Source: a virus (Duplodnaviria; Heunggongvirae; Uroviricota; Caudoviricetes). From it: DNA of 64,000 bases. The stretch spans positions 101,830-165,829 of the IMG/VR virus record IMGVR_UViG_3300010383_000113. One strand, 5' to 3'. The position numbers and the translations under genes are program-made. The notes beneath the pieces were generated by a model. That model was not told the DNA's origin and searched no databases. It saw only the letters and a list, made by a program, of their open reading frames with translations. Position 1 is the stretch's first letter, and every line of letters starts with the position of its first letter. Shown in pieces: positions 4,907 through 59,835 of this stretch.

Positions 4907-5122
4907 TTATTTCCCATAGGAGAACATTCGGCGGTATTCTTCTTCCTCGGCGGCCGTCGGCTCGTAGGGGATCTTGTCGGGGTCGAGGTGGATGATCGAG
5001 TCGACTGGCGGCTCGTCATCTGGCTGGGGCGGACATGAAGATCCGCCGTAGATCGACCCACCCATCGAAAGCCAGTCTCGTAGAGAGACGACGGAAACGA
5101 ACGGCAACGGCTCAAGCAGCAT
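4907..5122 (-). CDS. hypothetical small protein
   Basis: 71 aa ORF in gene array. Confidence 0.3.
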   Translation of the reverse strand: MLLEPLPFVSVVSLRDWLSMGGSIYGGSSCPPQPDDEPPVDSIIHLDPDKIPYEPTAAEEEEYRRMFSYGK

Positions 5123-5126
5123 GGCT

Positions 5127-5471
5127 TTACCCTTCGGACTTGAGTTCTTCGACGCATGCCATGACGTCGCCCACCGTGAGGCTCCTCCCGAGGCCCAGGA
5201 CGGCCGCGTAGACCTCCTGGACGCTCAGGCCGCTGCCGGAGTCGGCCACGGCGTGCTTGACGATCCTGCGGACCTTCCAGCGGGCCAGGAGGCCGGGGTC
5301 GCGGCACTGCTCGACGGCCGACGCCGGGTACAACTGCCAGCACTCATAGGCCAGCAGGATGAGCTTCAGGATGGCGACCACCAGGACGACGTCGACCTGC
5401 TTGGGGGAATTCGAACCGCTGTCGGACGGAATCGACGCCAGGACTTGCGAGGCCAATCTTGTGATTGTCAT
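5127..5471 (-). CDS. hypothetical protein
   Basis: 114 aa ORF. Confidence 0.35.
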   Translation of the reverse strand: MTITRLASQVLASIPSDSGSNSPKQVDVVLVVAILKLILLAYECWQLYPASAVEQCRDPGLLARWKVRRIVKHAVADSGSGLSVQEVYAAVLGLGRSLTVGDVMACVEELKSEG

Positions 5472-6388
5472 TCAATCGCCACCTTAGTGCCCGGAATACA
5501 CCAGGACACATTGTCAGGAAAGAAACCACGGCTCAAATCTTTGCGTCTCAACCTAGCCTTGATATCAGGTGCATCTCCAACATCATTGAAAAACGCCATA
5601 ATGTCATCACGCCACGGTTGATGAACATCGATTCCGTTCTCTCGCGATCTCCTGAGCATCCCGTAGTAAGCGTGCCACTCCTTGGTATTCACTTTGTTGT
5701 GATCGGGCTTCAACAACAACGGCGTCGTCAGTGCCTCCTCGTCCGTCCAGCCATTCTTATGGCGGTTCCAGAGCACCTGATACGACACGCCGATTTCTTC
5801 CGCCCATTCCGACGCCGGCAGAGTCCTCCCGTTGTATGAGATGAACCAGGTGAGTTCTCTGTTGTTGGTGTTATCTCTCGGTGTTGACCAGGAGAGATTG
5901 TTCGGCATGCGGTTGGTCCGGCACCACTCGCAATCTCCGCAAGTATAAGATCCCGTATTGTCCCTCCGATCGATCTGATGCCGAGAGTCAGGTCTCGGAC
6001 CTACGACCTCAAGGAACTTGGCGAAGTCGTTTTTAATGCCGTCGCAAACCACCACGGGGATGGGAAGCCTTCCCCCATATCGATGGTAGGCATGGTGGTT
6101 GGGATTGCCACATCGTTCAAGGATCCCGTACCAAACTCCCCACTCCGGAGATTTTTCCTTACGTGTGGCATGTCCGTGTTTGGTATTTCGTCTGATCATC
6201 CTTTCCGACGTCAGGCACCCGCACGATCGAACATTTCCACGACGTAATTCACCGCCGGCCGACACATGCCAGGATTGCTTGGGGCAGGTACATCGACACA
6301 GCCAAACTCGATCGCCGTTCGACGCCCTGCCCCATTCTCTGACAACTTTCAGGCGGCCAAATTCGCGGCCGACCATCTCAATCATCAA
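5468..6388 (-). CDS. HNH homing endonuclease (HNH_3 type) with N-terminal DNA-binding domain
   Basis: HQIDRRDNTGSYTCGDCEWCRTNRMPNNLSWSTPRDNTNN (H-x-D..N..NL..N..N), NTKHGH..W..RC.NPN..Y..YGG; markedly lower GC than flanks. Confidence 0.65.
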   Translation of the reverse strand: MMIEMVGREFGRLKVVREWGRASNGDRVWLCRCTCPKQSWHVSAGGELRRGNVRSCGCLTSERMIRRNTKHGHATRKEKSPEWGVWYGILERCGNPNHHAYHRYGGRLPIPVVVCDGIKNDFAKFLEVVGPRPDSRHQIDRRDNTGSYTCGDCEWCRTNRMPNNLSWSTPRDNTNNRELTWFISYNGRTLPASEWAEEIGVSYQVLWNRHKNGWTDEEALTTPLLLKPDHNKVNTKEWHAYYGMLRRSRENGIDVHQPWRDDIMAFFNDVGDAPDIKARLRRKDLSRGFFPDNVSWCIPGTKVAIE

Positions 6389-45778: not shown

Positions 45779-46506
45779 TCAGGTGACGTTTGTGCGGCGT
45801 TTGTTCTCTACGATGAGTTTGATCGCCGCCGGGGAAACGCCGTATACTCGGGCGATTTCGGCCTTCCGACGGCCGTCCTGATAGAGTTTGCGAATTCCAC
45901 GTACGTCATCGTCCGAGAGTTTCTTCCTCGGTTGACCCTGAGCTTTAGGATTGGGCGTAGGACTGTAGTGAATGCCCGTGAGGCTGCTCCAGGATCTTCC
46001 TTTGATGATCGCGTTGATGGTGGTCGGGTCAACGCCAAAGAGAGCGGCGATTTGCTCCTGCGAAAGGCCCTCGTCTTTGTAGAGCCTGATGATTTCCAGG
46101 ACTTTATCAGGGTCGAGTTTTGCGTGGGGGTGGTGACCACCGGGTTGGAGGTAGTTGGTGCCGTGCTCGACCTGATCCTGGTAGTTCTCGGCCGGGCTAC
46201 CGTATTTGAGGTTGTCCAGTCTGTTGTTGGATGGATCCCCGTCGAGGTGCCGGATGAGCATCCCATCCGGTCTAGGCCCAACGTAAGTCAGGAGTACGAG
46301 TTCGTGGACGAAGAAGAAGTTCTTCCTCCCGAGTTCCACCCCGCGATGCCCCCTGTACTGGACGCTCTGCTTAAGCTGCTTCCAAGGCCCGGTGACGATA
46401 TGGTCTTTTCGTTTGTAGTGAAGGTTTGACCAAACGGTGCCGTCGTTGCCAACTCGGTAGTTGCTATAGCCGGGAACAAGGCGATACTCAACTCGAAATT
46501 CCACCG
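45779..46506 (-). CDS. HNH homing endonuclease (NUMOD4 + HNH_3 + C-terminal HTH repeats)
   Basis: YRVGNDGTVWS, HLDGDPSNNRLDNLKYGSPAEN; GTG start with AAGGAG; lower GC than flanks. Confidence 0.65.
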
Positions 46507-46680
46507 GCAGACGTCTCCTTGATGTTGAAGTGCATGGCCTGGGTGATGATCGGACCTTCGCAGTAGACCGAAAGGTCGATGGCGACCTTGACGGCGGCCT
46601 TGGGGTCGTGGCCGAGGTGCATGGCGGCCGTGGCGAAGTCGCAGCCGGCCCCGATGGCGTCGTACGCCAGGATCTCGTCA
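46507..46680 (-). pseudogene. C-terminal fragment of an HslV/proteasome-beta-like (Ntn hydrolase) gene
   Basis: NHCDGYYVDEILAYDAIGAGCDFATAAMHLGHDPKAAVKVAIDLSVYCEGPII aligns with the HslV C-terminus; N-terminal 100+ residues absent, in-frame stop upstream. Confidence 0.3.
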
Positions 46681-46795
46681 ACGTAGTAGCCGTCGCAGTG
46701 GTTTCAAAAGCTTCTTCGAAGCTTAACGGATGGGATCGGTAGGGAGTTTGAGGTGATACTCAAGTGATGGAACAACTCGGCCGGGAGGTCGACCT

Positions 46796-53111: not shown

Positions 53112-53568
53112 TCATCCCTTGTCGTCCTGGTTGAAATACTCATAGGACAGGTGTTCGGCCCGGGGGACGCGGATGGCGTTCACGCGGTCGCACATAGGGC
53201 TGTTCGCGAGCATTGTGCATCGGAAGTCGAGAGAGTCCGGCTTCGCGTTATGTACGAACGGGTGACAGCACAATGAACAGCTCGCGGGAACCATGATCTC
53301 GCTCCAGGCAATGTCGTCCGGGTCGATGAGGTCGCCGTCTTGATACTTGGGAGGTCCGATCCCATCTTCGACGAAGGGGATGATAACGCTCCATGACATC
53401 GGGGCGGCCCCATAGACCTTGTCGGGATTCTGGGTGTGGAGCGACTCGGCCGCCGCACGAGCCTCCTTCCAGGTCATGTGGCGAGACACCACGTCCAGAC
53501 AGTCCGCTCGCTGGACCAGGACGAAGTATCGAGGCTTGTTGTAGAGATCATCAACATCAACCATCACG
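53112..53568 (-). CDS. hypothetical protein with Cys-rich C-terminus
   Basis: probable start MVDVDDLYNK; SCSLCCHPF. Confidence 0.4.
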
Positions 53569-53585
53569 TAGTCTCCCACAAAGAA

Positions 53586-53634
53586 GAGGAGCAGGGAGGG
53601 CACGTCTCCACCCCCTGCTCCCCGACGAAGTCGG
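53586..53634. repeat. near-perfect inverted motif pair GGAGCAGGGAGGG-8nt-CCACCCCCTGCTCC plus hairpin CCGACgaaGTCGG
   Basis: direct reading; 12-13 bp potential stem. Confidence 0.65.
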
Positions 53635-53826
53635 TCAGCTTTTGACGCCCCTGTGAAGATCACGGCACTTCTCTGAGCAGTAGTGCAGCCATCTTCCCTT
53701 TCGGCTCCGCTCGTAGATCAGGGTTCCTTCATCGACCATCTTACGTCGAGCCGTGCAACCATCTACGAGTTCGTTGAATATCTCCCTGGAACATCGATCG
53801 CAGATGGCCTTCCATCCTTTGGTCAT
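53635..53826 (-). CDS. zinc-ribbon mini-protein
   Basis: CDRC...CSEKC. Confidence 0.35.
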   Translation of the reverse strand: MTKGWKAICDRCSREIFNELVDGCTARRKMVDEGTLIYERSRKGRWLHYCSEKCRDLHRGVKS

Positions 53827-54293
53827 TCATCCGCCCTCATCAGATTGATGCTGCGGTCGTTGTTGATCATGATCCGGAAGATGTCGCCGACTTGCGGGAG
53901 GTGGTCGAAGAAGACCCTGTCGGCGTGTTCTCGCAGGATCATGGTCCGGCCGTCCTTCAGGCCGCGAACTTCTACGACGACATCATAGGACCGGGCCTCG
54001 TGCTGCTTGTAATTGCCGTACTTGTAGACGTCGGTTTCGCCCAGGGCTCGAACAACTTCGACCAGGCCGTCGTTGCTCTTGGCATAGCCCTGAAGATTTG
54101 TCAGGACGGCCTGTTTCTTCAGGTGGTCGTTAACGGCCATGTAGCCGAACACAGTCAGAATCAGGAACAACGGGAGGAGTAAACCTCCCATCATCGTCCA
54201 GAAAAAGATCTGGGCGTCTTTGTCGGCGTCGGAGACGCCTCCCTTGGTGGTTCTGGTCGCATTCGAGATCGCCACCATCGCTGGTAGGTTCAA
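53823..54293 (-). CDS. membrane protein
   Basis: TM MMGGLLLPLFLILTVFGYM. Confidence 0.4.
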   Translation of the reverse strand: MNLPAMVAISNATRTTKGGVSDADKDAQIFFWTMMGGLLLPLFLILTVFGYMAVNDHLKKQAVLTNLQGYAKSNDGLVEVVRALGETDVYKYGNYKQHEARSYDVVVEVRGLKDGRTMILREHADRVFFDHLPQVGDIFRIMINNDRSINLMRADE

Positions 54294-56080
54294 GACTGGG
54301 CCCTCCTGCGGATCTCGGCGAAGGTCTCGTCGATCAGCAGGCGGCCATCGCGAAAGACTTCACGCATCTGGTCGTCCGGCTCGTTGATCGAGGCACAACG
54401 ATCCACCAGGCGGTAGTCGCCGTTCTCGTCGAGGACCACCTTAGTATATCCACGAGCTGATTTCTTGGTGCCGGAATCGGTCGCGGGATCCTTGAAGATC
54501 TCGCGGAACTCGCCGTTGACGATGCCGGCCGTGGACTTCACAGCGAAGCCGAAGGTGTCCCGAGTGACCATCTGATAGGTGTTGTGGGATAGGTAGCCGT
54601 TCGTGATGAACGTGCCACACGAGGTCTGAATGCCTGCGATCGGTTGTTTCCCGACGGGGTTGATCGAGGTGATCGTCGCCAGTTGGTAGGTCCTCCCTCT
54701 GGCCAGAGCGGGCATCTCTGCGGTAATCGCGTCGATCTTCTCCAGTAGTCGTTCGGGTCGTACCTGGCCGAGGAAGCGGAGTGTTTCTACCCATCCCCCC
54801 GTAAGGATGACGTGTTCGCACTTACGGTCAAGACGGTAGTACGTGAATTCTCGATCGTCGAGTCGGGCTTTGATTCGTTCCAGTGTGGGCGTTTGGTTTT
54901 GGGAGATGCTTACCTTCCATGACGGAATTCGATCCCCGGTGTTGCAGACACCAAGTCCTCCTTCGCCGTCGAACATGCCCGCAAGCCACCCGCCTTCGCG
55001 GGTATTGTCTGTTTCCCAGGGGTCGCATAGGTAGGCGATCTGATCGCCCACTTCGAGTTCGTAGGTTCGTTTCCAAACCAGGCCGGGATTTCGAGGGAAG
55101 TCCTTCGATGATTGGGCTTTGTTTGGGTCGAAGAAGACGTTGTTCTTACGGCGGCTTGGTGCGTAGACCAGCCAGGGATGGTCGTCGCTGGCGGTGATGT
55201 CTGGTCCGATATCGGTTGAGATCTGGGTCGAGAGTTTCGTGCCTGGATTGTTGTACTCGATGGTAGCCTTGCGGAATCGACGAGTGGCATGACGACCATT
55301 GTCGAAATTCGGATCCTCGTCGAACGCGATGATTTCCTGCCCGACTTTCAAATCACCGGCACGTCGCCAGATCAAATCGGCACACAAAATGAGAGTTTCG
55401 GGATGGACGCAATAGGAACCGACCCCAAACGTGATGTTCGAGGATGCGAACCCCTTTGCTTTCAGGCCCTCCAGGATGGCCTTGGCACGCTCCAGGGTGA
55501 TCGAGTCCCCATAAATCGTCCCGATGTGGCTGTCGAGGACTTTGTAGCCCTTGGAGTTGATGGTCCCGCCGAACGTCTGCCATAGCACGTCCAGGGTTCC
55601 CATCTCGGCGGGCTCGGGAATGGCGACATTCCAGTCAGAGATCCAAACCCGGGTCGCGACGCCCTGCTGGGCCTCGTACGAGCAGGTAAGGTCCCAGTAG
55701 ACGACCAGACCATCCTTGTCCACGCGAATGCGGTCGACGTACTTATGAGGCCGTCCGCCGACATGCAAGACCTCCTCGTTGATCTTGAACTTGGCTACAT
55801 CGCCGTGTTCCTGTATCGCTTGCTCGATCGACGAGTAGGTCCGGACTGGCTTTCCGCAGATCACTTCGACTGGACTGCCAGAATCTGGTCTCACTACAGT
55901 CTTCCCGTCGCGGGACATGATGACTTTCTTGAGACGTGGAAGGCTGTCTGATAGCACAGACCAGTAGTCGAATGAGTCAGACACCAGCGATACGATCCCC
56001 TTGGGATAAACGTTGGTGATCATGTGCTTGATGAAGGCGGTTTCAGACAGCAGTCGGTAGTTCGTCTCGAAACTCGTCAT
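54290..56080 (-). CDS. nicotinamide phosphoribosyltransferase-family protein, C-terminal half, interrupted by an intein
   Basis: LVSDSFDYW and RPDSGSP (NAMPT motifs) then GVGSY|CVHPETL...TASDDHPW...LAGMFDGEGGLG...ITNGYLSHN|T (intein blocks A, B, LAGLIDADG, terminal HN). Confidence 0.7.
   Translation of the reverse strand: MTSFETNYRLLSETAFIKHMITNVYPKGIVSLVSDSFDYWSVLSDSLPRLKKVIMSRDGKTVVRPDSGSPVEVICGKPVRTYSSIEQAIQEHGDVAKFKINEEVLHVGGRPHKYVDRIRVDKDGLVVYWDLTCSYEAQQGVATRVWISDWNVAIPEPAEMGTLDVLWQTFGGTINSKGYKVLDSHIGTIYGDSITLERAKAILEGLKAKGFASSNITFGVGSYCVHPETLILCADLIWRRAGDLKVGQEIIAFDEDPNFDNGRHATRRFRKATIEYNNPGTKLSTQISTDIGPDITASDDHPWLVYAPSRRKNNVFFDPNKAQSSKDFPRNPGLVWKRTYELEVGDQIAYLCDPWETDNTREGGWLAGMFDGEGGLGVCNTGDRIPSWKVSISQNQTPTLERIKARLDDREFTYYRLDRKCEHVILTGGWVETLRFLGQVRPERLLEKIDAITAEMPALARGRTYQLATITSINPVGKQPIAGIQTSCGTFITNGYLSHNTYQMVTRDTFGFAVKSTAGIVNGEFREIFKDPATDSGTKKSARGYTKVVLDENGDYRLVDRCASINEPDDQMREVFRDGRLLIDETFAEIRRRAQS
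54580..55410 (-). mobile_element. intein (about 277 aa) with LAGLIDADG homing-endonuclease-like domain inside the NAMPT C-half
   Basis: N-terminal Cys, TxxH block B, LAGMFDGEGG, C-terminal SHN followed by Thr; lower GC; coordinates approximate. Confidence 0.6.
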
Positions 56081-56663
56081 AGTACATCCAGATTAGTGGC
56101 TCGTTGGTTTCCGGGTGTTTGCCCGCAGATCTACATCCGTAGAGCTTACGACAAACCCGAGTCAAGTTGCCGCTGTCGATTCCGTATTTCTGAGCGGCTA
56201 ATCTAGCAGATTCAAAAACATCGCCTGTGTTCAATAGGACAACAGGCGTTGACTTGGGATTTTCCTTGCCTGTGCGTTTGCCCTTGTGGGCCTTGGATAG
56301 CTTCTCGCTGCGTTCCACGGTCGATTTCAGGAGATTGTTGTCCCATGCGTGTTGAATGTTCTCAGCGTGGGTCATCCACTCCAGGTTGCCGTGGTGGTTG
56401 TCGAGTTTGTTTCCGGACTTGTGGTTCACCTCCGGCTTATCGTCCGGATTTGGAACGAACAGGATCGCTACTAGCCGATGAATCCGAAGCGTTTTGCGTC
56501 GACCGTCGTCGCCTCGAAGAGTGATGACCGGATAGCCGTCCTCGTTGATTTGAACGGGAAGGTGCGATTCAGACTTTGTGTCGCACACTTCGCCGGAGTC
56601 GGATATCCGGTAGCGGCCGAACCCCTCATAGGTCTTCCAGGTTGATTCCGTTCCACGATCCAT
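56043..56663 (-). CDS. HNH homing endonuclease (NUMOD4 + HNH_3) inserted between NAMPT halves
   Basis: YEGFGRYRISDSGEVCD, EVNHKSGNKLDNHHGNLEWMTHAEN; about 50% GC; overlaps both NAMPT half-ORFs by about 37 nt. Confidence 0.7.
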   Translation of the reverse strand: MDRGTESTWKTYEGFGRYRISDSGEVCDTKSESHLPVQINEDGYPVITLRGDDGRRKTLRIHRLVAILFVPNPDDKPEVNHKSGNKLDNHHGNLEWMTHAENIQHAWDNNLLKSTVERSEKLSKAHKGKRTGKENPKSTPVVLLNTGDVFESARLAAQKYGIDSGNLTRVCRKLYGCRSAGKHPETNEPLIWMYYDEFRDELPTAV

Positions 56664-57456
56664 TGACGCGAAGGCTCTCCTCGATGTTGAAGATGTTGAG
56701 CGTGGCGACGCTGTGTTCCGTGGCTGGAACGCTTACGCCCACCACCTCCTGCTCCACATCCGCGTTGTAGTAGCTCTCGACCAGGTCGATGGCACAGATC
56801 GAGTCCGTCCCGATGAACGAAGTCAGGTGCCCCGCTCCGCTCATCGCCCCGTCTTCGAGCCCACTCAAACCACGCATCGAAAAATCGTGTGCCTGAGTGT
56901 TCAGATGGGCGTCCGAGTCGCAGGTCTCATCCGCGTACTTCTTGAGGAGCAGGCGGTAGTGCCTCGCCACCGTCGCGGAAGTCGTGGGCTTCCAGAGGTA
57001 GGCCGAGAGGGCCGTCTCCAGGAAGTTGGTCAGCCACGCGAAGTCCTCGTGGGTGTTGTAAAGAACCAGCACAGGGGTCTTCATCGGCACCTGACAGCCT
57101 TCGGGCAAGGCCTTGATGCAGATGGGCAGGTAGCCGAGGTCGTGGAGTTGTTCGATGTGGTCGGTCGGGACCGCGTCCTTGCCGAGGTAGGCGTCCATAC
57201 GACGCTTGAACCGCAGGACGACCTCTCGCTTGGGCCGCTGGAAGAAGCCGACGTCCCAGGTTTCCTGCAAGAACTCCTTCAGGAAGTATTGGAGGCCGAA
57301 GAACGTGACCTTCCCCGTCCACAGATCGTCGGGGATGTTCTTGAGGCGATCACTTCTAGGGGTCAGGTTGCTGTACACCATCGAGGTGCCGGCCGGGTAC
57401 TGCTGGCGGTGGCTCTGCTTGTAGCCGTCAGCACACGTCAGGGGGTTCTTAAGCAC
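56626..57456 (-). CDS. nicotinamide phosphoribosyltransferase-family protein, N-terminal half
   Basis: ADGYKQSHRQQYPAGTSMVYS, DFSMRGLSG, GAGHLTSFIGTDSI, VSVPATEHSVAT match the NAMPT N-terminal region; homology stops where the HNH insert begins. Confidence 0.7.
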   Translation of the reverse strand: MLKNPLTCADGYKQSHRQQYPAGTSMVYSNLTPRSDRLKNIPDDLWTGKVTFFGLQYFLKEFLQETWDVGFFQRPKREVVLRFKRRMDAYLGKDAVPTDHIEQLHDLGYLPICIKALPEGCQVPMKTPVLVLYNTHEDFAWLTNFLETALSAYLWKPTTSATVARHYRLLLKKYADETCDSDAHLNTQAHDFSMRGLSGLEDGAMSGAGHLTSFIGTDSICAIDLVESYYNADVEQEVVGVSVPATEHSVATLNIFNIEESLRVNGSWNGINLEDL

Positions 57457-57718
57457 TGTCTTTCCTCCGGGCGTATCGCCCGTCCAATTCTTCAGTTTCG
57501 AACATTTCCATCCGGCCGTTCGGGAAGCGGATGTAGTAGGCGGCTCTCGGGGTCACTAGACAGCGAATGATGTCCTCGACGATCCCTTCCTGCCCAAGCA
57601 AGTCACGGATTGCGTGGACGTTCTCGGTGAGATTCTTGCGTACCCTGACGGCCTGGCCCACCTCGAAGATGGGCTCTGGCCGAGGTGCCTGTGCGGCGAG
57701 TTCGATCATGTGTTTCAC
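57449..57718 (-). CDS. hypothetical protein
   Basis: 89 aa ORF. Confidence 0.4.
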   Translation of the reverse strand: MKHMIELAAQAPRPEPIFEVGQAVRVRKNLTENVHAIRDLLGQEGIVEDIIRCLVTPRAAYYIRFPNGRMEMFETEELDGRYARRKDSA

Positions 57719-58116
57719 GAGAGAGTGACCCCTGACTCTTCGATCCGTTCAACGAAGTAGTCAAGAGTCCGGCCGATCGCTTCGACGACATAGGTGGTGT
57801 TGACGGGCTTGTCCATGGTGCCGGATGAGGAACTCGCACAGAGGGATGAGATCTGACTCTCAACCCTGAAATGAGCGGTGACCCAATTGACTTCCTCGTG
57901 GCACGAGAGGGTCAAACTGATGGGGTCTTTCCCCTTCTGCCAAAATCGGGCCTTGGCGTAAAGCTTCCGGTTGTCGTTCCACCAACTGAAGAAACCATGG
58001 CAGGTCTTCACGACGACGGTGCGGTTTTCATAGCCGTGGTTTTCCAAAATGTCGGCGATATCAGAGATTTTGGCGGAAGTCGCCTCGACGACCTCATCCC
58101 AAGCGATGGTTTCCAT
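57715..58116 (-). CDS. hypothetical protein
   Basis: 133 aa ORF. Confidence 0.4.
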   Translation of the reverse strand: METIAWDEVVEATSAKISDIADILENHGYENRTVVVKTCHGFFSWWNDNRKLYAKARFWQKGKDPISLTLSCHEEVNWVTAHFRVESQISSLCASSSSGTMDKPVNTTYVVEAIGRTLDYFVERIEESGVTLS

Positions 58117-58125
58117 GAGAACCTC

Positions 58126-58368
58126 TCAAAATTCGTGACAGATACAGGGACAGTCGTAGTCCAGACCCAGGCACTCACAGCACTCCTCGTCCTCGAAGTC
58201 AAACGACGGAGGGCCTGCTTCCTGCTGTTCGAGCTTTCGTTCGAGTTCGTCGAGTCGCCGGGTGGCGTTGTGCCACTCGTTCTCAACCCTGGCGAACTGA
58301 CTGATGGCCCAGAACGCCCAGGACCCGTGTAAGATAGTTAGGACGACGACGGTGATCAGGATGCTCAT
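58126..58368 (-). CDS. membrane protein with Cys-rich tail
   Basis: start MSILITVVVLTIL; CCECLGLDYDCPCICHEF. Confidence 0.35.
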   Translation of the reverse strand: MSILITVVVLTILHGSWAFWAISQFARVENEWHNATRRLDELERKLEQQEAGPPSFDFEDEECCECLGLDYDCPCICHEF

Positions 58369-59286
58369 GAGAAGCTCCGAAGGTTGCCGTAGGAATCGAA
58401 GTCGAGGGGCATCACGCCGAAAGGTTGATTGGGCCAGAGCCACAGCATGTCGTCGGCTCGCAGGACGGATTCCGACTTAAAGCTGTCGGTCGTGTAGATT
58501 CCGTCGATATCTTGGTAGAGAACGTCCACACCCTTGGAGAAGATCCCGTGGGTGACGTACAGGAGGACCTTGGAGGCCCCCGCCTTCTTCAAGACCTTGG
58601 CCAGTTCGAGGAAGGTGCGTCCGCCGTCGCAGATGTCGTCGACGATGAGGCAGGCCCTCCCTGCTACCTTGTGACCCTCGGGCAGCTCGGTCGAAAGGAT
58701 GTCGCCCGTCTTCGTGCATCGCACCTTGGTGGCCGTCACCACGTCCAGGCCGTAGGCCGAGGCGGTCTTCCAGGCCTTCTTGTAGGCCCCGGCGTCCGGG
58801 CTGACGATAACCGTCTGGGAATCCTTGAGGACGCCCTGGAGGCCGCTGTGGGCCCTCACAAGGGCATCCTGCTCGATCACCCGGCAGTTGTTCAGGAGGG
58901 CCGGCGTGACGTCCGAGTGAGGGTCGCAGATGATGATGTTGTCGTGCCAGGGATGGTCGTCGATGAGGCGGGCGATCGACTTCAGGGAGAAGGCCTCGCC
59001 GTGTGCCATCCGACGGTCCTGGCGGGCGTACGGGAAGTAGGGCACGACGAGGTTGCAGATCCCACCAAAACTGCATTGCTCGTTCAACAGATCGAGGAGG
59101 AGCAGGAGGTGAATGACATCGTCGCTCGACTGGAGCCTCGCCGTGATGGTTACGTCGCCGGAGAAGTGCTGTGGGACCAGGGAGGCCTTGGCCTGAATCT
59201 CTCCTCCAGAGAACTGGAAGGAATTGGTGTTGAGGATCTCGCGTTCCCAGGGTTTCGGCCAGTGGGAGATTTCGATCTGATTCATG
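58365..59286 (-). CDS. ribose-phosphate pyrophosphokinase homolog (Prs-like; possibly ADPR-pyrophosphate synthetase)
   Basis: start MNQIEISHW; VVPYFPYARQDR and LIVDDICDGGRT (PRPP-binding loop). Confidence 0.7.
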
Positions 59287-59344
59287 GGGCCTTCAGTTGG
59301 TGTCGTGATAGAGGACTTCCAGGACCGTCTTGTGGCAGCAGCGA

Positions 59345-59722
59345 TCAAGATTTGCCATTTACTCGTTCGACCACATAGAAATACAGGTAAGACGACGCTA
59401 TCAAGGCCACGGTGATTGGTCCAAAGGCGGAACCGACGGCGACGGTCCCACTGAGTTTGAGACGCTCTCTCCAGCAGAGGTCTTTGATTGGGAAGCCGAG
59501 ACGAAGGTCGATCTTGTAGTGGCGGTCCAGGTAGAAGAGAAGGCTTTCCGTCATCATCACGCAGGCGATGAGCGAACAGACGGCCCAGAAGACGAAGAAG
59601 TTCACTTGACGGTTCCTCTGACCTTGATGGAGTTCGAGAGGCGACGCATGATACCATTCCAGCCGTTCACGGCCCCTGCCCTCGTGTACCACTTGGGGCC
59701 ACCGCTGCCGCACCGCCGACAA
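59345..59722 (-). CDS. membrane protein
   Basis: hydrophobic segments VNFFVFWAVCSLIACVMM, ITVALIASSYLYFYVV. Confidence 0.35.
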   Translation of the reverse strand: MSAVRQRWPQVVHEGRGRERLEWYHASPLELHQGQRNRQVNFFVFWAVCSLIACVMMTESLLFYLDRHYKIDLRLGFPIKDLCWRERLKLSGTVAVGSAFGPITVALIASSYLYFYVVERVNGKS

Positions 59723-59835
59723 ACGACCTGGTAGGTGCGACTGCCGAGGTCGAGGAGGTCGGGAGCAGGGAGGGCGGCCAGGTCGAGCATCTCGCAGACG
59801 CGACAGCCCTCTAGTCTGTAACGGGTTCTCGGCAT
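59602..59835 (-). CDS. zinc-ribbon mini-protein
   Basis: CRVC...CRRCG. Confidence 0.3.
   Translation of the reverse strand: MPRTRYRLEGCRVCEMLDLAALPAPDLLDLGSRTYQVVCRRCGSGGPKWYTRAGAVNGWNGIMRRLSNSIKVRGTVK

Follow-up and report, generated by a model that had tools for sequence, protein, structure and literature searches.

We analysed a 64,000-nt stretch of a large uncultured phage (IMG/VR record IMGVR_UViG_3300010383_000113; hereafter "the window"), in which a gene for NAMPT (NadV), an enzyme of nicotinamide adenine dinucleotide (NAD) salvage, was found in two pieces, with an HNH homing endonuclease gene between the pieces and an intein within the second one. All genes of this locus lie on the minus strand, and related sequences are referred to by L numbers (loci) or P numbers (proteins). 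The parts of the NAMPT gene are the following.

56626..57456, minus strand: gene for the NAMPT N-half, 276 aa from a GTG start; it encodes NAMPT_N and the initial barrel motifs (DGYK, HDFSMRG, GTD, PATEHS), then the tail ATLNIFNIEESLRVNGSWNGINLEDL and the stop codon
54290..56080, minus strand: NAMPT C-half precursor gene, 596 aa, composed of extein, intein and extein
55412..56080, minus strand: N-extein of the C-half, aa 1-223, with the motifs VSDSFDYW, RPDSGSP, YGDSIT and GVGSY
54290..54580, minus strand: C-extein of the C-half, aa 501-596 plus stop, starting at Thr+1 (TYQMVTRDTFGFAVK)

The two halves of NAMPT and the breakpoint

The N-half matched Pfam NAMPT_N (36.4 bits) and also NAPRTase, while the C-half matched NAPRTase with 82.1 bits, the NAMPT_N match of the first and the NAPRTase match of the second both being above the Pfam cut-offs. 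When compared to PHROG 448, the N-half covered profile positions 13-260 of 500 (E 1e-98) and the match of the C-half began at position 259 (E 2e-82); these Pfam and PHROG 448 scores are far beyond chance. The NCBIfam model PRK09198 gave 264.7 bits for the N-half and 247 bits for the C-half, each under the 405-bit cut-off for the whole protein, as expected of halves. In Erwinia phage pEp_SNUABM_01, a single NAMPT of 573 aa matched the N-half over residues 1-276 and then, at the next nucleotide, the C-half from its residue 9. Because the halves map to adjoining profile positions and are contiguous in an intact homolog, the two open reading frames (ORFs) are complementary, collinear halves of one NAMPT/NadV (type II phosphoribosyltransferase), as had been proposed in a first, sequence-only reading of the window from the N-terminal motifs in one ORF and VSDSFDYW and RPDSGSP in the other. 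The motifs DxYK, HDFxxRG, GTD, EHS, VSDxxD, RPDSG, YGDxI, GxGS and TRD are all present in invariant or near-invariant alignment columns, and we take their catalytic roles to be those of human NAMPT. Over the 872 codons of both halves there are no stops or frameshifts.

The breakpoint falls in a variable surface loop approximately 25 residues past the catalytic EHS motif. Ordinary NAMPTs read EHSVMCMGTxxxExxTFRRLIxxxYP at this position, and the window reads EHSVATLNIFNIEESLRVNGSWNGINLEDL followed by a stop, and then MTSFETNYRLLSETAFIKHMITNVYP. The intact long-loop homolog L032, which reads NIANIQQSLDITGKW... at this position, has a similar loop, so that most of the N-tail in the window is native loop sequence.

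A second variable loop, to which the first reading had made no reference, is found within the C-half.

55613..55843, minus strand: lineage-variable loop segment, C-half aa 80-156, 77 aa, with about 73 residues beyond the solved reference structure 9w5x

This loop varies from 12 to 381 nt among intact homologs and has a predicted local distance difference test score (pLDDT) below 50, i.e., it is unmodelled. It was considered as a third mobile insert and rejected, since it is without intein ends, is variable in intact genes and has a host-like GC content at third codon positions (GC3).

The HNH gene between the halves

The insert between the halves is filled by a single ORF that overlaps both of them.

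56043..56663, minus strand: homing endonuclease gene, 206 aa, with NUMOD4, HNH_3 and a C-terminal DNA-binding region
56626..56663, minus strand: 38-nt overlap of the N-half and the HNH gene, the HNH ATG (56663) lying within the V-N-G codons of the N-half
56043..56080, minus strand: 38-nt overlap of the 3' end of the HNH gene and the start of the C-half, with the C-half ATG at 56080

Both HNH_3 (34 bits) and NUMOD4 (26 bits) scored over the Pfam cut-offs and PHROG agreed. The residues N80, H81, N93 and H105, which are invariant among orthologs, are kept in the window together with all other invariant positions of the aligned orthologs. The N-half, HNH and C-half ORFs occupy three different frames, and the end of the N-half (NLEDL-stop) is read in the HNH frame as T-W-K-T-Y-E, the beginning of NUMOD4. 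The coordinates first given for the three ORFs were exact. With the HNH ORF reaching into both halves, nothing non-coding remains for a ribozyme core, and the gene is free-standing, embedded in neither an intron nor an intein.

A self-splicing group I intron carrying the HNH gene would instead join the halves in RNA and yield NAMPT as one chain. Phage HNH genes are often intron-borne, the authors of the Pectobacterium phage CB7 study called the homologous insert an "intron", and one related NAMPT gene has a true group I intron at another site. We nevertheless consider this explanation highly improbable, as the overlaps leave no RNA for the ribozyme core and Rfam searches found no intron, neither in positions 53500-58500 of the window (E<=10, including RF00028) nor at the HNH site of L007, L008, L009, L018 and L078 (E<=1). 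As a positive control, the same search over six related loci recovered the group I intron of L032 with 70.9 bits (E 4.5e-16). Moreover, RT-PCR (reverse transcription PCR) showed that the equivalent HNH insert of CB7 is not removed from the NAMPT mRNA (Buttimer et al. 2020, PMC7344957). The original view that there was no room for a group I intron thus held.

Relatives also conserve the translation signals of the C-half, which likewise speaks against an intron. The layout of stop, Shine-Dalgarno sequence and ATG is conserved across the split loci compared, with the C-half ATG located from 7 nt after to 38 nt before the HNH stop. In relatives, the conserved C-terminal Trp-Glu/Arg-Phe/Tyr codons of the HNH gene contain the Shine-Dalgarno sequence of the C-half (GGGAG, GGAGG or GGAG), as located below.

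L018:3497-3524: Shine-Dalgarno sequence within HNH codons
L171:474-501: Shine-Dalgarno sequence within HNH codons
L078:5295-5322: Shine-Dalgarno sequence within HNH codons
L173:3318-3345: Shine-Dalgarno sequence within HNH codons

The coding sequence of the parasite therefore doubles as a translation signal for the C-half, and the HNH cassette as a whole appears to bring the N-half stop, the ribosome-binding site and the C-half start codon.

The order half, free-standing endonuclease, half would also fit a "fractured gene", in which split-intein pieces at the broken ends ligate the halves by protein trans-splicing (Dassa et al. 2009, PMC2677866), and most N-halves with a tail like that of the window have a Cys, Ser or Thr two residues past EHSV. 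This Cys is native, however, as intact genes read EHSVMCMG, and the non-native sequence amounts to only about 22 aa in the N-tail and about 8 aa in the C-head, far below the size of any intein. The C-heads consist of Met, 1-7 residues and the native helix and lack a His-Asn with Cys, Ser or Thr after it, and the intact L032 has a similar loop as ordinary sequence. Trans-splicing of the halves is hardly credible on these grounds.

The intein of the C-half

The second insert lies in frame within the C-half and has the following features.

54581..55411, minus strand: class-1 intein, 277 aa (C-half aa 224-500), with Cys1, block B SDDH, terminal SHN and Thr+1
54719..55000, minus strand: LAGLIDADG endonuclease domain, intein aa ~138-231, motif WLAGMFDGEG

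Alignment to the solved NAMPT 9w5x placed C-half residues 157-223 on chain residues 326-392 and residues 501-592 on chain residues 393-487, so that an insertion of exactly 277 aa lies between GVGSY and TYQ, where residues 392 and 393 of 9w5x are contiguous. The intein site is the phosphate-binding GxGS(Y/F)|T motif, and 78 of the 80 nearest IMG/VR NAMPT loci have zero gap there; of the other two, L032 has an intron and L023 ends short of the site.

The residues required for splicing are present (C1, S-D-D-H with His78 invariant in the family, SHN and T+1). The sequence-only reading had described an intein of roughly this length with Cys1, a LAGLIDADG motif and an SHN/T end, all of which stood, while the block B motif that it gave as T-x-x-H is S-D-D-H. 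We retrieved 22 relatives of the intein, four of them at the same NAMPT site (45-58% identical) and the others in unrelated proteins. They end in His-Asn in 20 of 22 cases and begin with Cys in 19 of the 20 with a complete N-terminus. A family alignment of 16 sequences had Cys1 in all of them and His-Asn followed by Ser, Thr or Cys in 15. A Pfam search with the window intein sequence alone gave no match, and an NCBIfam model of an intein-containing radical-SAM protein matched it with 5e-9. Among the 16 family members, Pfam found LAGLIDADG_3 in 11 and Intein_splicing in seven. The Hint part of the family profile matched Mxe GyrA (3e-9), PI-PfuI, PI-SceI and hedgehog, and its central part matched I-AniI and I-HjeMI (about 1e-6). 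An AlphaFold (AF2) model of the intein (pLDDT 87.8, predicted template modelling score 0.84) was assigned by Foldseek with probability 1.00 to the endonuclease-bearing inteins TliVMA, PI-SceI and DnaB. Profile and fold searches hence agreed on Hint and LAGLIDADG, and the intein is genuine, with a Hint fold and one LAGLIDADG domain.

The model shows a single alpha-beta-beta-alpha-beta-beta-alpha unit within approximately 95 aa, with one LAGLIDADG motif, whose region is conserved across the family at G141, L143, G145, D148, E150, G151 and Q171. The two-domain, pseudo-dimeric LAGLIDADG arrangement of PI-SceI and PI-PfuI was looked for by motif, profile and model and was not encountered. We know of no description of a homodimeric single-LAGLIDADG architecture for intein endonucleases.

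Members of the intein family also occur in portal genes of Gordonia phages (41% identity) and in terminases of cluster-C mycobacteriophages (32%). These actinophage class-1 LAGLIDADG inteins align over all 277 aa and share the Cys1 to His-Asn architecture and the compact size of the window intein, and differ from it in the host protein. Among 164 deposited phage records, none was found with this intein in NAMPT, and NAMPT is not listed as an intein host in three intein surveys (Kelley 2016, PMC5050341; Gosselin 2025, preprint; Novikova). The family is thus known, and NAMPT as its host appears to be new, not having been found in the literature searched. A lead from phage ICP1 ("intein + nadV") was rejected, as the ICP1 intein sits in NrdA.

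Degenerate copies of the NAMPT intein were observed at L002:2896-4002 and in P0002, with HD or HS in place of the terminal HN and a scrambled C-extein. Their surroundings look bacterial, with GGDEF/EAL and histidine-kinase genes.

Independent invasions and base composition

Either element was found without the other. L008, L009, L018 and L078 have the HNH split and lack this intein (the L173 contig stops before the intein site), and the closest relative of the intein, which is 58% identical (L001:5126-7431), has no HNH insert; the N-terminal part of the L001 NAMPT is broken by frame changes, due to either decay or sequencing error. Because relatives carry either element alone, the two invasions are independent, in agreement with the first interpretation of the locus.

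Further elements were found in related NAMPT genes. A different intein of about 330 aa (C-Y-x-[ED]-[DQ]-T ... AVCGN|S), which ends in Gly-Asn instead of His-Asn, is located at RPD|SG of NAMPT in L064 (~4950-5940) and L171 (~685-1656). As L171 bears both this intein and the HNH split, NAMPT has been doubly invaded more than once. The NAMPT gene at L032:5396-6722 (IMGVR_UViG_3300033068_001142) carries a group I intron (RF00028) with a 343-aa ORF, which splices within the Ser codon of G-I-G-S-Y-T; the insertion point of the window intein lies only 5 nt downstream, indicating that intron and intein target the same motif.

The inserts were also distinguished by their composition. GC content was 52.8% in the HNH gene, 55.8% in the intein and about 60% in the exteins; the inserts are lower in GC than the host gene, as first noted, yet not at the "about 50%" then given. 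Third codon positions separate the segments more clearly: GC3 was 0.79-0.85 in the exteins and the neighbouring ribose-phosphate pyrophosphokinase gene (Prs), 0.61 in the HNH gene, 0.65 in the intein and 0.66 in the first ~80 codons of the C-half, and it dropped sharply at the N-terminal boundary of the intein. The low GC3 of the HNH gene and the intein suggests that both inserts are foreign.

Codons 1-79 of the C-half (55844-56080; GC 0.515, GC3 0.66) resemble the HNH gene rather than the host gene (GC3 ~0.8) and may have been imported by co-conversion along with the endonuclease gene. In terms of protein similarity, the junction-proximal segments resembled split loci no more than intact ones.

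Distribution of the split

Related NAMPT loci were retrieved with an N-half alignment as query, as a search with the single N-half sequence returned none; at the DNA level, megablast against GenBank phages gave no match to the locus. The best 120 N-half homologs, many of them on long contigs, were used for a census. Overall, 54 were intact, 22 were split with the tail type of the window (WNG type), 10 were split with a second tail type (EEEWDExxxxW...) and about nine with other tails, so that about 40 of these closest homologs are split in the same loop. Of the 80 nearest IMG/VR NAMPT loci, 77 are uninterrupted at the HNH site and two are split. The HNH gene therefore shows a presence/absence polymorphism at one fixed site in homologous NAMPT genes. 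Split genes were no more similar to the window than intact genes, and a neighbour-joining tree of NAMPT homologs, which is crude and without support values, was star-like; vertical and horizontal spread of the split fit these results equally.

An orthologous NUMOD4/HNH_3 gene was found at the same site in the WNG-type loci L008, L009/L010, L018, L078, L171, L173 and L174. Identity to the HNH protein of the window was 43-51% by protein alignment (L008, L009, L018, L078) and 36-44% by tblastn for the rest, and the L008 copy is frameshifted. Among 160 loci fetched with the HNH alignment, NAMPT halves flank only the six closest (five distinct), i.e., the closest relatives of the HNH gene occur only between NAMPT halves, which argues for a site-specific endonuclease lineage. 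In two loci with the second tail type, L007:5001-7237 (Zavarzinella formosa JH636446) and L252:3501-5729, the gap holds a classical HNH gene (GWHIDHI.PC...NL.PLWW) that is unrelated, and the L007 locus resembles a prophage within a planctomycete genome. The same arrangement in the same loop was found in the cultured phages phiTE, CB7 and DU_PP_I/IV, with an HNH protein 30% identical to that of the window.

This distribution bears on two further explanations. The window stems from a metagenomic contig (its N-half is recorded as P0023 on a JGI contig of 171.7 kb) with no close match among deposited phages, and a faulty assembly might have joined unrelated fragments. Such an artefact is scarcely conceivable given that the junctions are exact to the codon and that independent assemblies of several samples, as well as cultured phage genomes, show this architecture too. 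More weight should be given to a dead gene, i.e., that NAMPT lost its function through the endonuclease insertion and its pieces are in decay, considering the weak ribosome-binding site of the C-half in the window, the frame disruptions of L001, the N-half without a partner in L251, and P0002 and P0003 with a mutated intein C-terminus and scrambled exteins. We still regard it as unlikely, since the halves of the window are open throughout, every catalytic motif is intact in both of them and the GC3 of the exteins equals that of neighbouring genes. In addition, both halves are intact in many lineages of only 50-60% identity, including cultured phages, which points to long-term purifying selection.

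At L251:3501-4328, NAMPT is represented by an N-half alone, whose tail is of a fourth type (...TLSIFTIMSSPEFEDIKKEFY...), and no C-half was found within 3.5 kb downstream of it. An intact NAMPT of 523 aa without HNH gene and without intein was observed in the Microbacterium phage record L003 (191,968 bp; gene 253).

Proposed mechanism

Taken together, two unrelated selfish elements, the HNH split and the intein, have very probably colonised the NAMPT (NadV) gene for NAD salvage in a large phage. A promoter-less NUMOD4/HNH_3 cassette would have inserted in the NAMPT loop and split the gene, and the three ORFs would be transcribed together. The N-half (276 aa) and the C-half precursor (596 aa) would then be translated separately as a "gene in pieces", the intein would splice out to give a C-half of 319 aa, and the N-half and the spliced C-half would associate non-covalently and rebuild the active site, as in Aeh1 NrdA. 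The two collinear ORFs cover the whole enzyme, each with its own translation signals (the C-half Shine-Dalgarno sequence being clear in relatives and weak in the window), and the fused N-half and spliced C-half were modelled as one NAMPT fold with pLDDT 82. We infer intein splicing, association of the halves, retained enzyme activity and current endonuclease activity.

Several points weigh against this reading. The sequence before the C-half ATG in the window is only tGGAtg, compared to GGGAG or GGAGG in relatives. The junction region of the fused model is of low confidence. With its single LAGLIDADG domain, the intein endonuclease may need dimerisation or may be inactive or half-degenerate. 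An NMN adenylyltransferase (NMNAT) gene sought near the locus by Pfam was not found. A promoter scan of positions 54000-59800 found no sigma-70-like sites, a result that fits a promoter-less cassette but is uninformative for this phage.

A more far-reaching reading, which we put forward as tentative and rather doubtful, combines three proposals: that the HNH cassette is a self-contained gene-splitting module, that NAMPT is an unrecognised hot spot for mobile elements and that the LAGLIDADG domain of the intein works as a homodimer. The module could comprise its own stop, a ribosome-binding site (in the W-E-F codons) and a start, plus the loop peptides as docking elements; if true, this would allow it to move between strongly diverged NAMPT genes while sparing their function. 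As a hot spot, NAMPT would harbour two inteins, a group I intron situated 5 nt away from an intein site and, within a single loop, two or more HNH lineages.

Comparison with known systems

Endonuclease-split NAMPT has already been published for CB7 and phiTE, and the individual phenomena are all established. The authors of the CB7 study proposed a two-peptide NAMPT enzyme (PMC7344957). CB7 (CB7_244/245/246) and phiTE (phiTE_195/196/197) have the same enzyme split in the same post-EHS loop as the window, with a similar N-tail (...NGSYDGKSLED..., compared to ...NGSWNGINLEDL before the stop in the window) and the same order of Prs, N-half, NUMOD4/HNH_3 gene overlapping the N-half, and C-half starting at the HNH stop. 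Their HNH protein differs in its C-terminal region, and their NAMPT is without an intein. Furthermore, they are enterobacterial Vequintavirinae of about 50% GC, whereas the window belongs to an unrelated uncultured phage of 60% GC.

"Genes in pieces" are known from nrdA of Aeromonas phage Aeh1, split by mobE, and from T4 gene 39/60 with mobA, and the two polypeptides of Aeh1 NrdA were shown to reassemble (review PMC2988022). As in the window, a metabolic gene is interrupted by a free-standing, promoter-less HNH gene whose ORF overlaps with the one upstream. The cases differ in host enzyme and HNH subfamily, and reassembly, shown in Aeh1, is inferred for NAMPT. The NAMPT split is also far more widespread over lineages than the Aeh1 and T4 cases. 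In fractured genes, split-intein halves are found at the break, while there are none at the NAMPT break. The ribonucleotide reductase (RNR) genes of a Bacillus prophage, reportedly described by Lazarevic in 2001 (as cited in PMC3037004), are said to carry both introns and inteins. They are similar to the window NAMPT in that several independent selfish elements reside in one metabolic gene, and differ in that the window combines a non-splicing endonuclease split with an intein.

Many phage NAMPTs would be natural two-piece enzymes, some of them also needing protein splicing. This affects annotation, which at present treats the halves as individual "NAMPT" genes, as "domain-containing proteins" or as distinct PHROG families. 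For enzyme engineering, nature would supply a permissive NAMPT split site. For mobile-element biology, the locus and its relatives are of interest as a compact system: a single small gene has three sites, and an endonuclease split, two inteins and one group I intron compete for them.

Genomic setting

The window represents a nucleotide-metabolism block of a large uncultured phage, with RNR large and small subunits, thymidylate synthase, dUTPase and a ParB-like gene. An RNR gene split suspected at the window start was rejected, as these are ordinary large- and small-subunit genes. The gene just upstream of NAMPT is the following.

58365..59285, minus strand: Prs (ribose-phosphate pyrophosphokinase) gene, identified by Pfam and PHROG, start codon provisional

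Prs is the usual partner of phage NAMPT, and the pairing recurs in L004, L005, L007, L009 and L253. By rebuilding NAD+, phage NAMPT/Prs modules have a bearing on host defences that deplete NAD. Another free-standing HNH_3 gene was observed elsewhere in the window, at 45779-46681 (minus strand; 300 aa, several helix-turn-helix domains, GC3 0.66). The split NAMPT loci L252 (84-2594, 6471-7436) and L251 (362-1069) adjoin PARG, ADP-ribosylglycohydrolase, Acb3-like and nucleoside deoxyribosyltransferase-like genes, and this gene neighbourhood suggests a role in NAD/ADP-ribose conflicts with the host.

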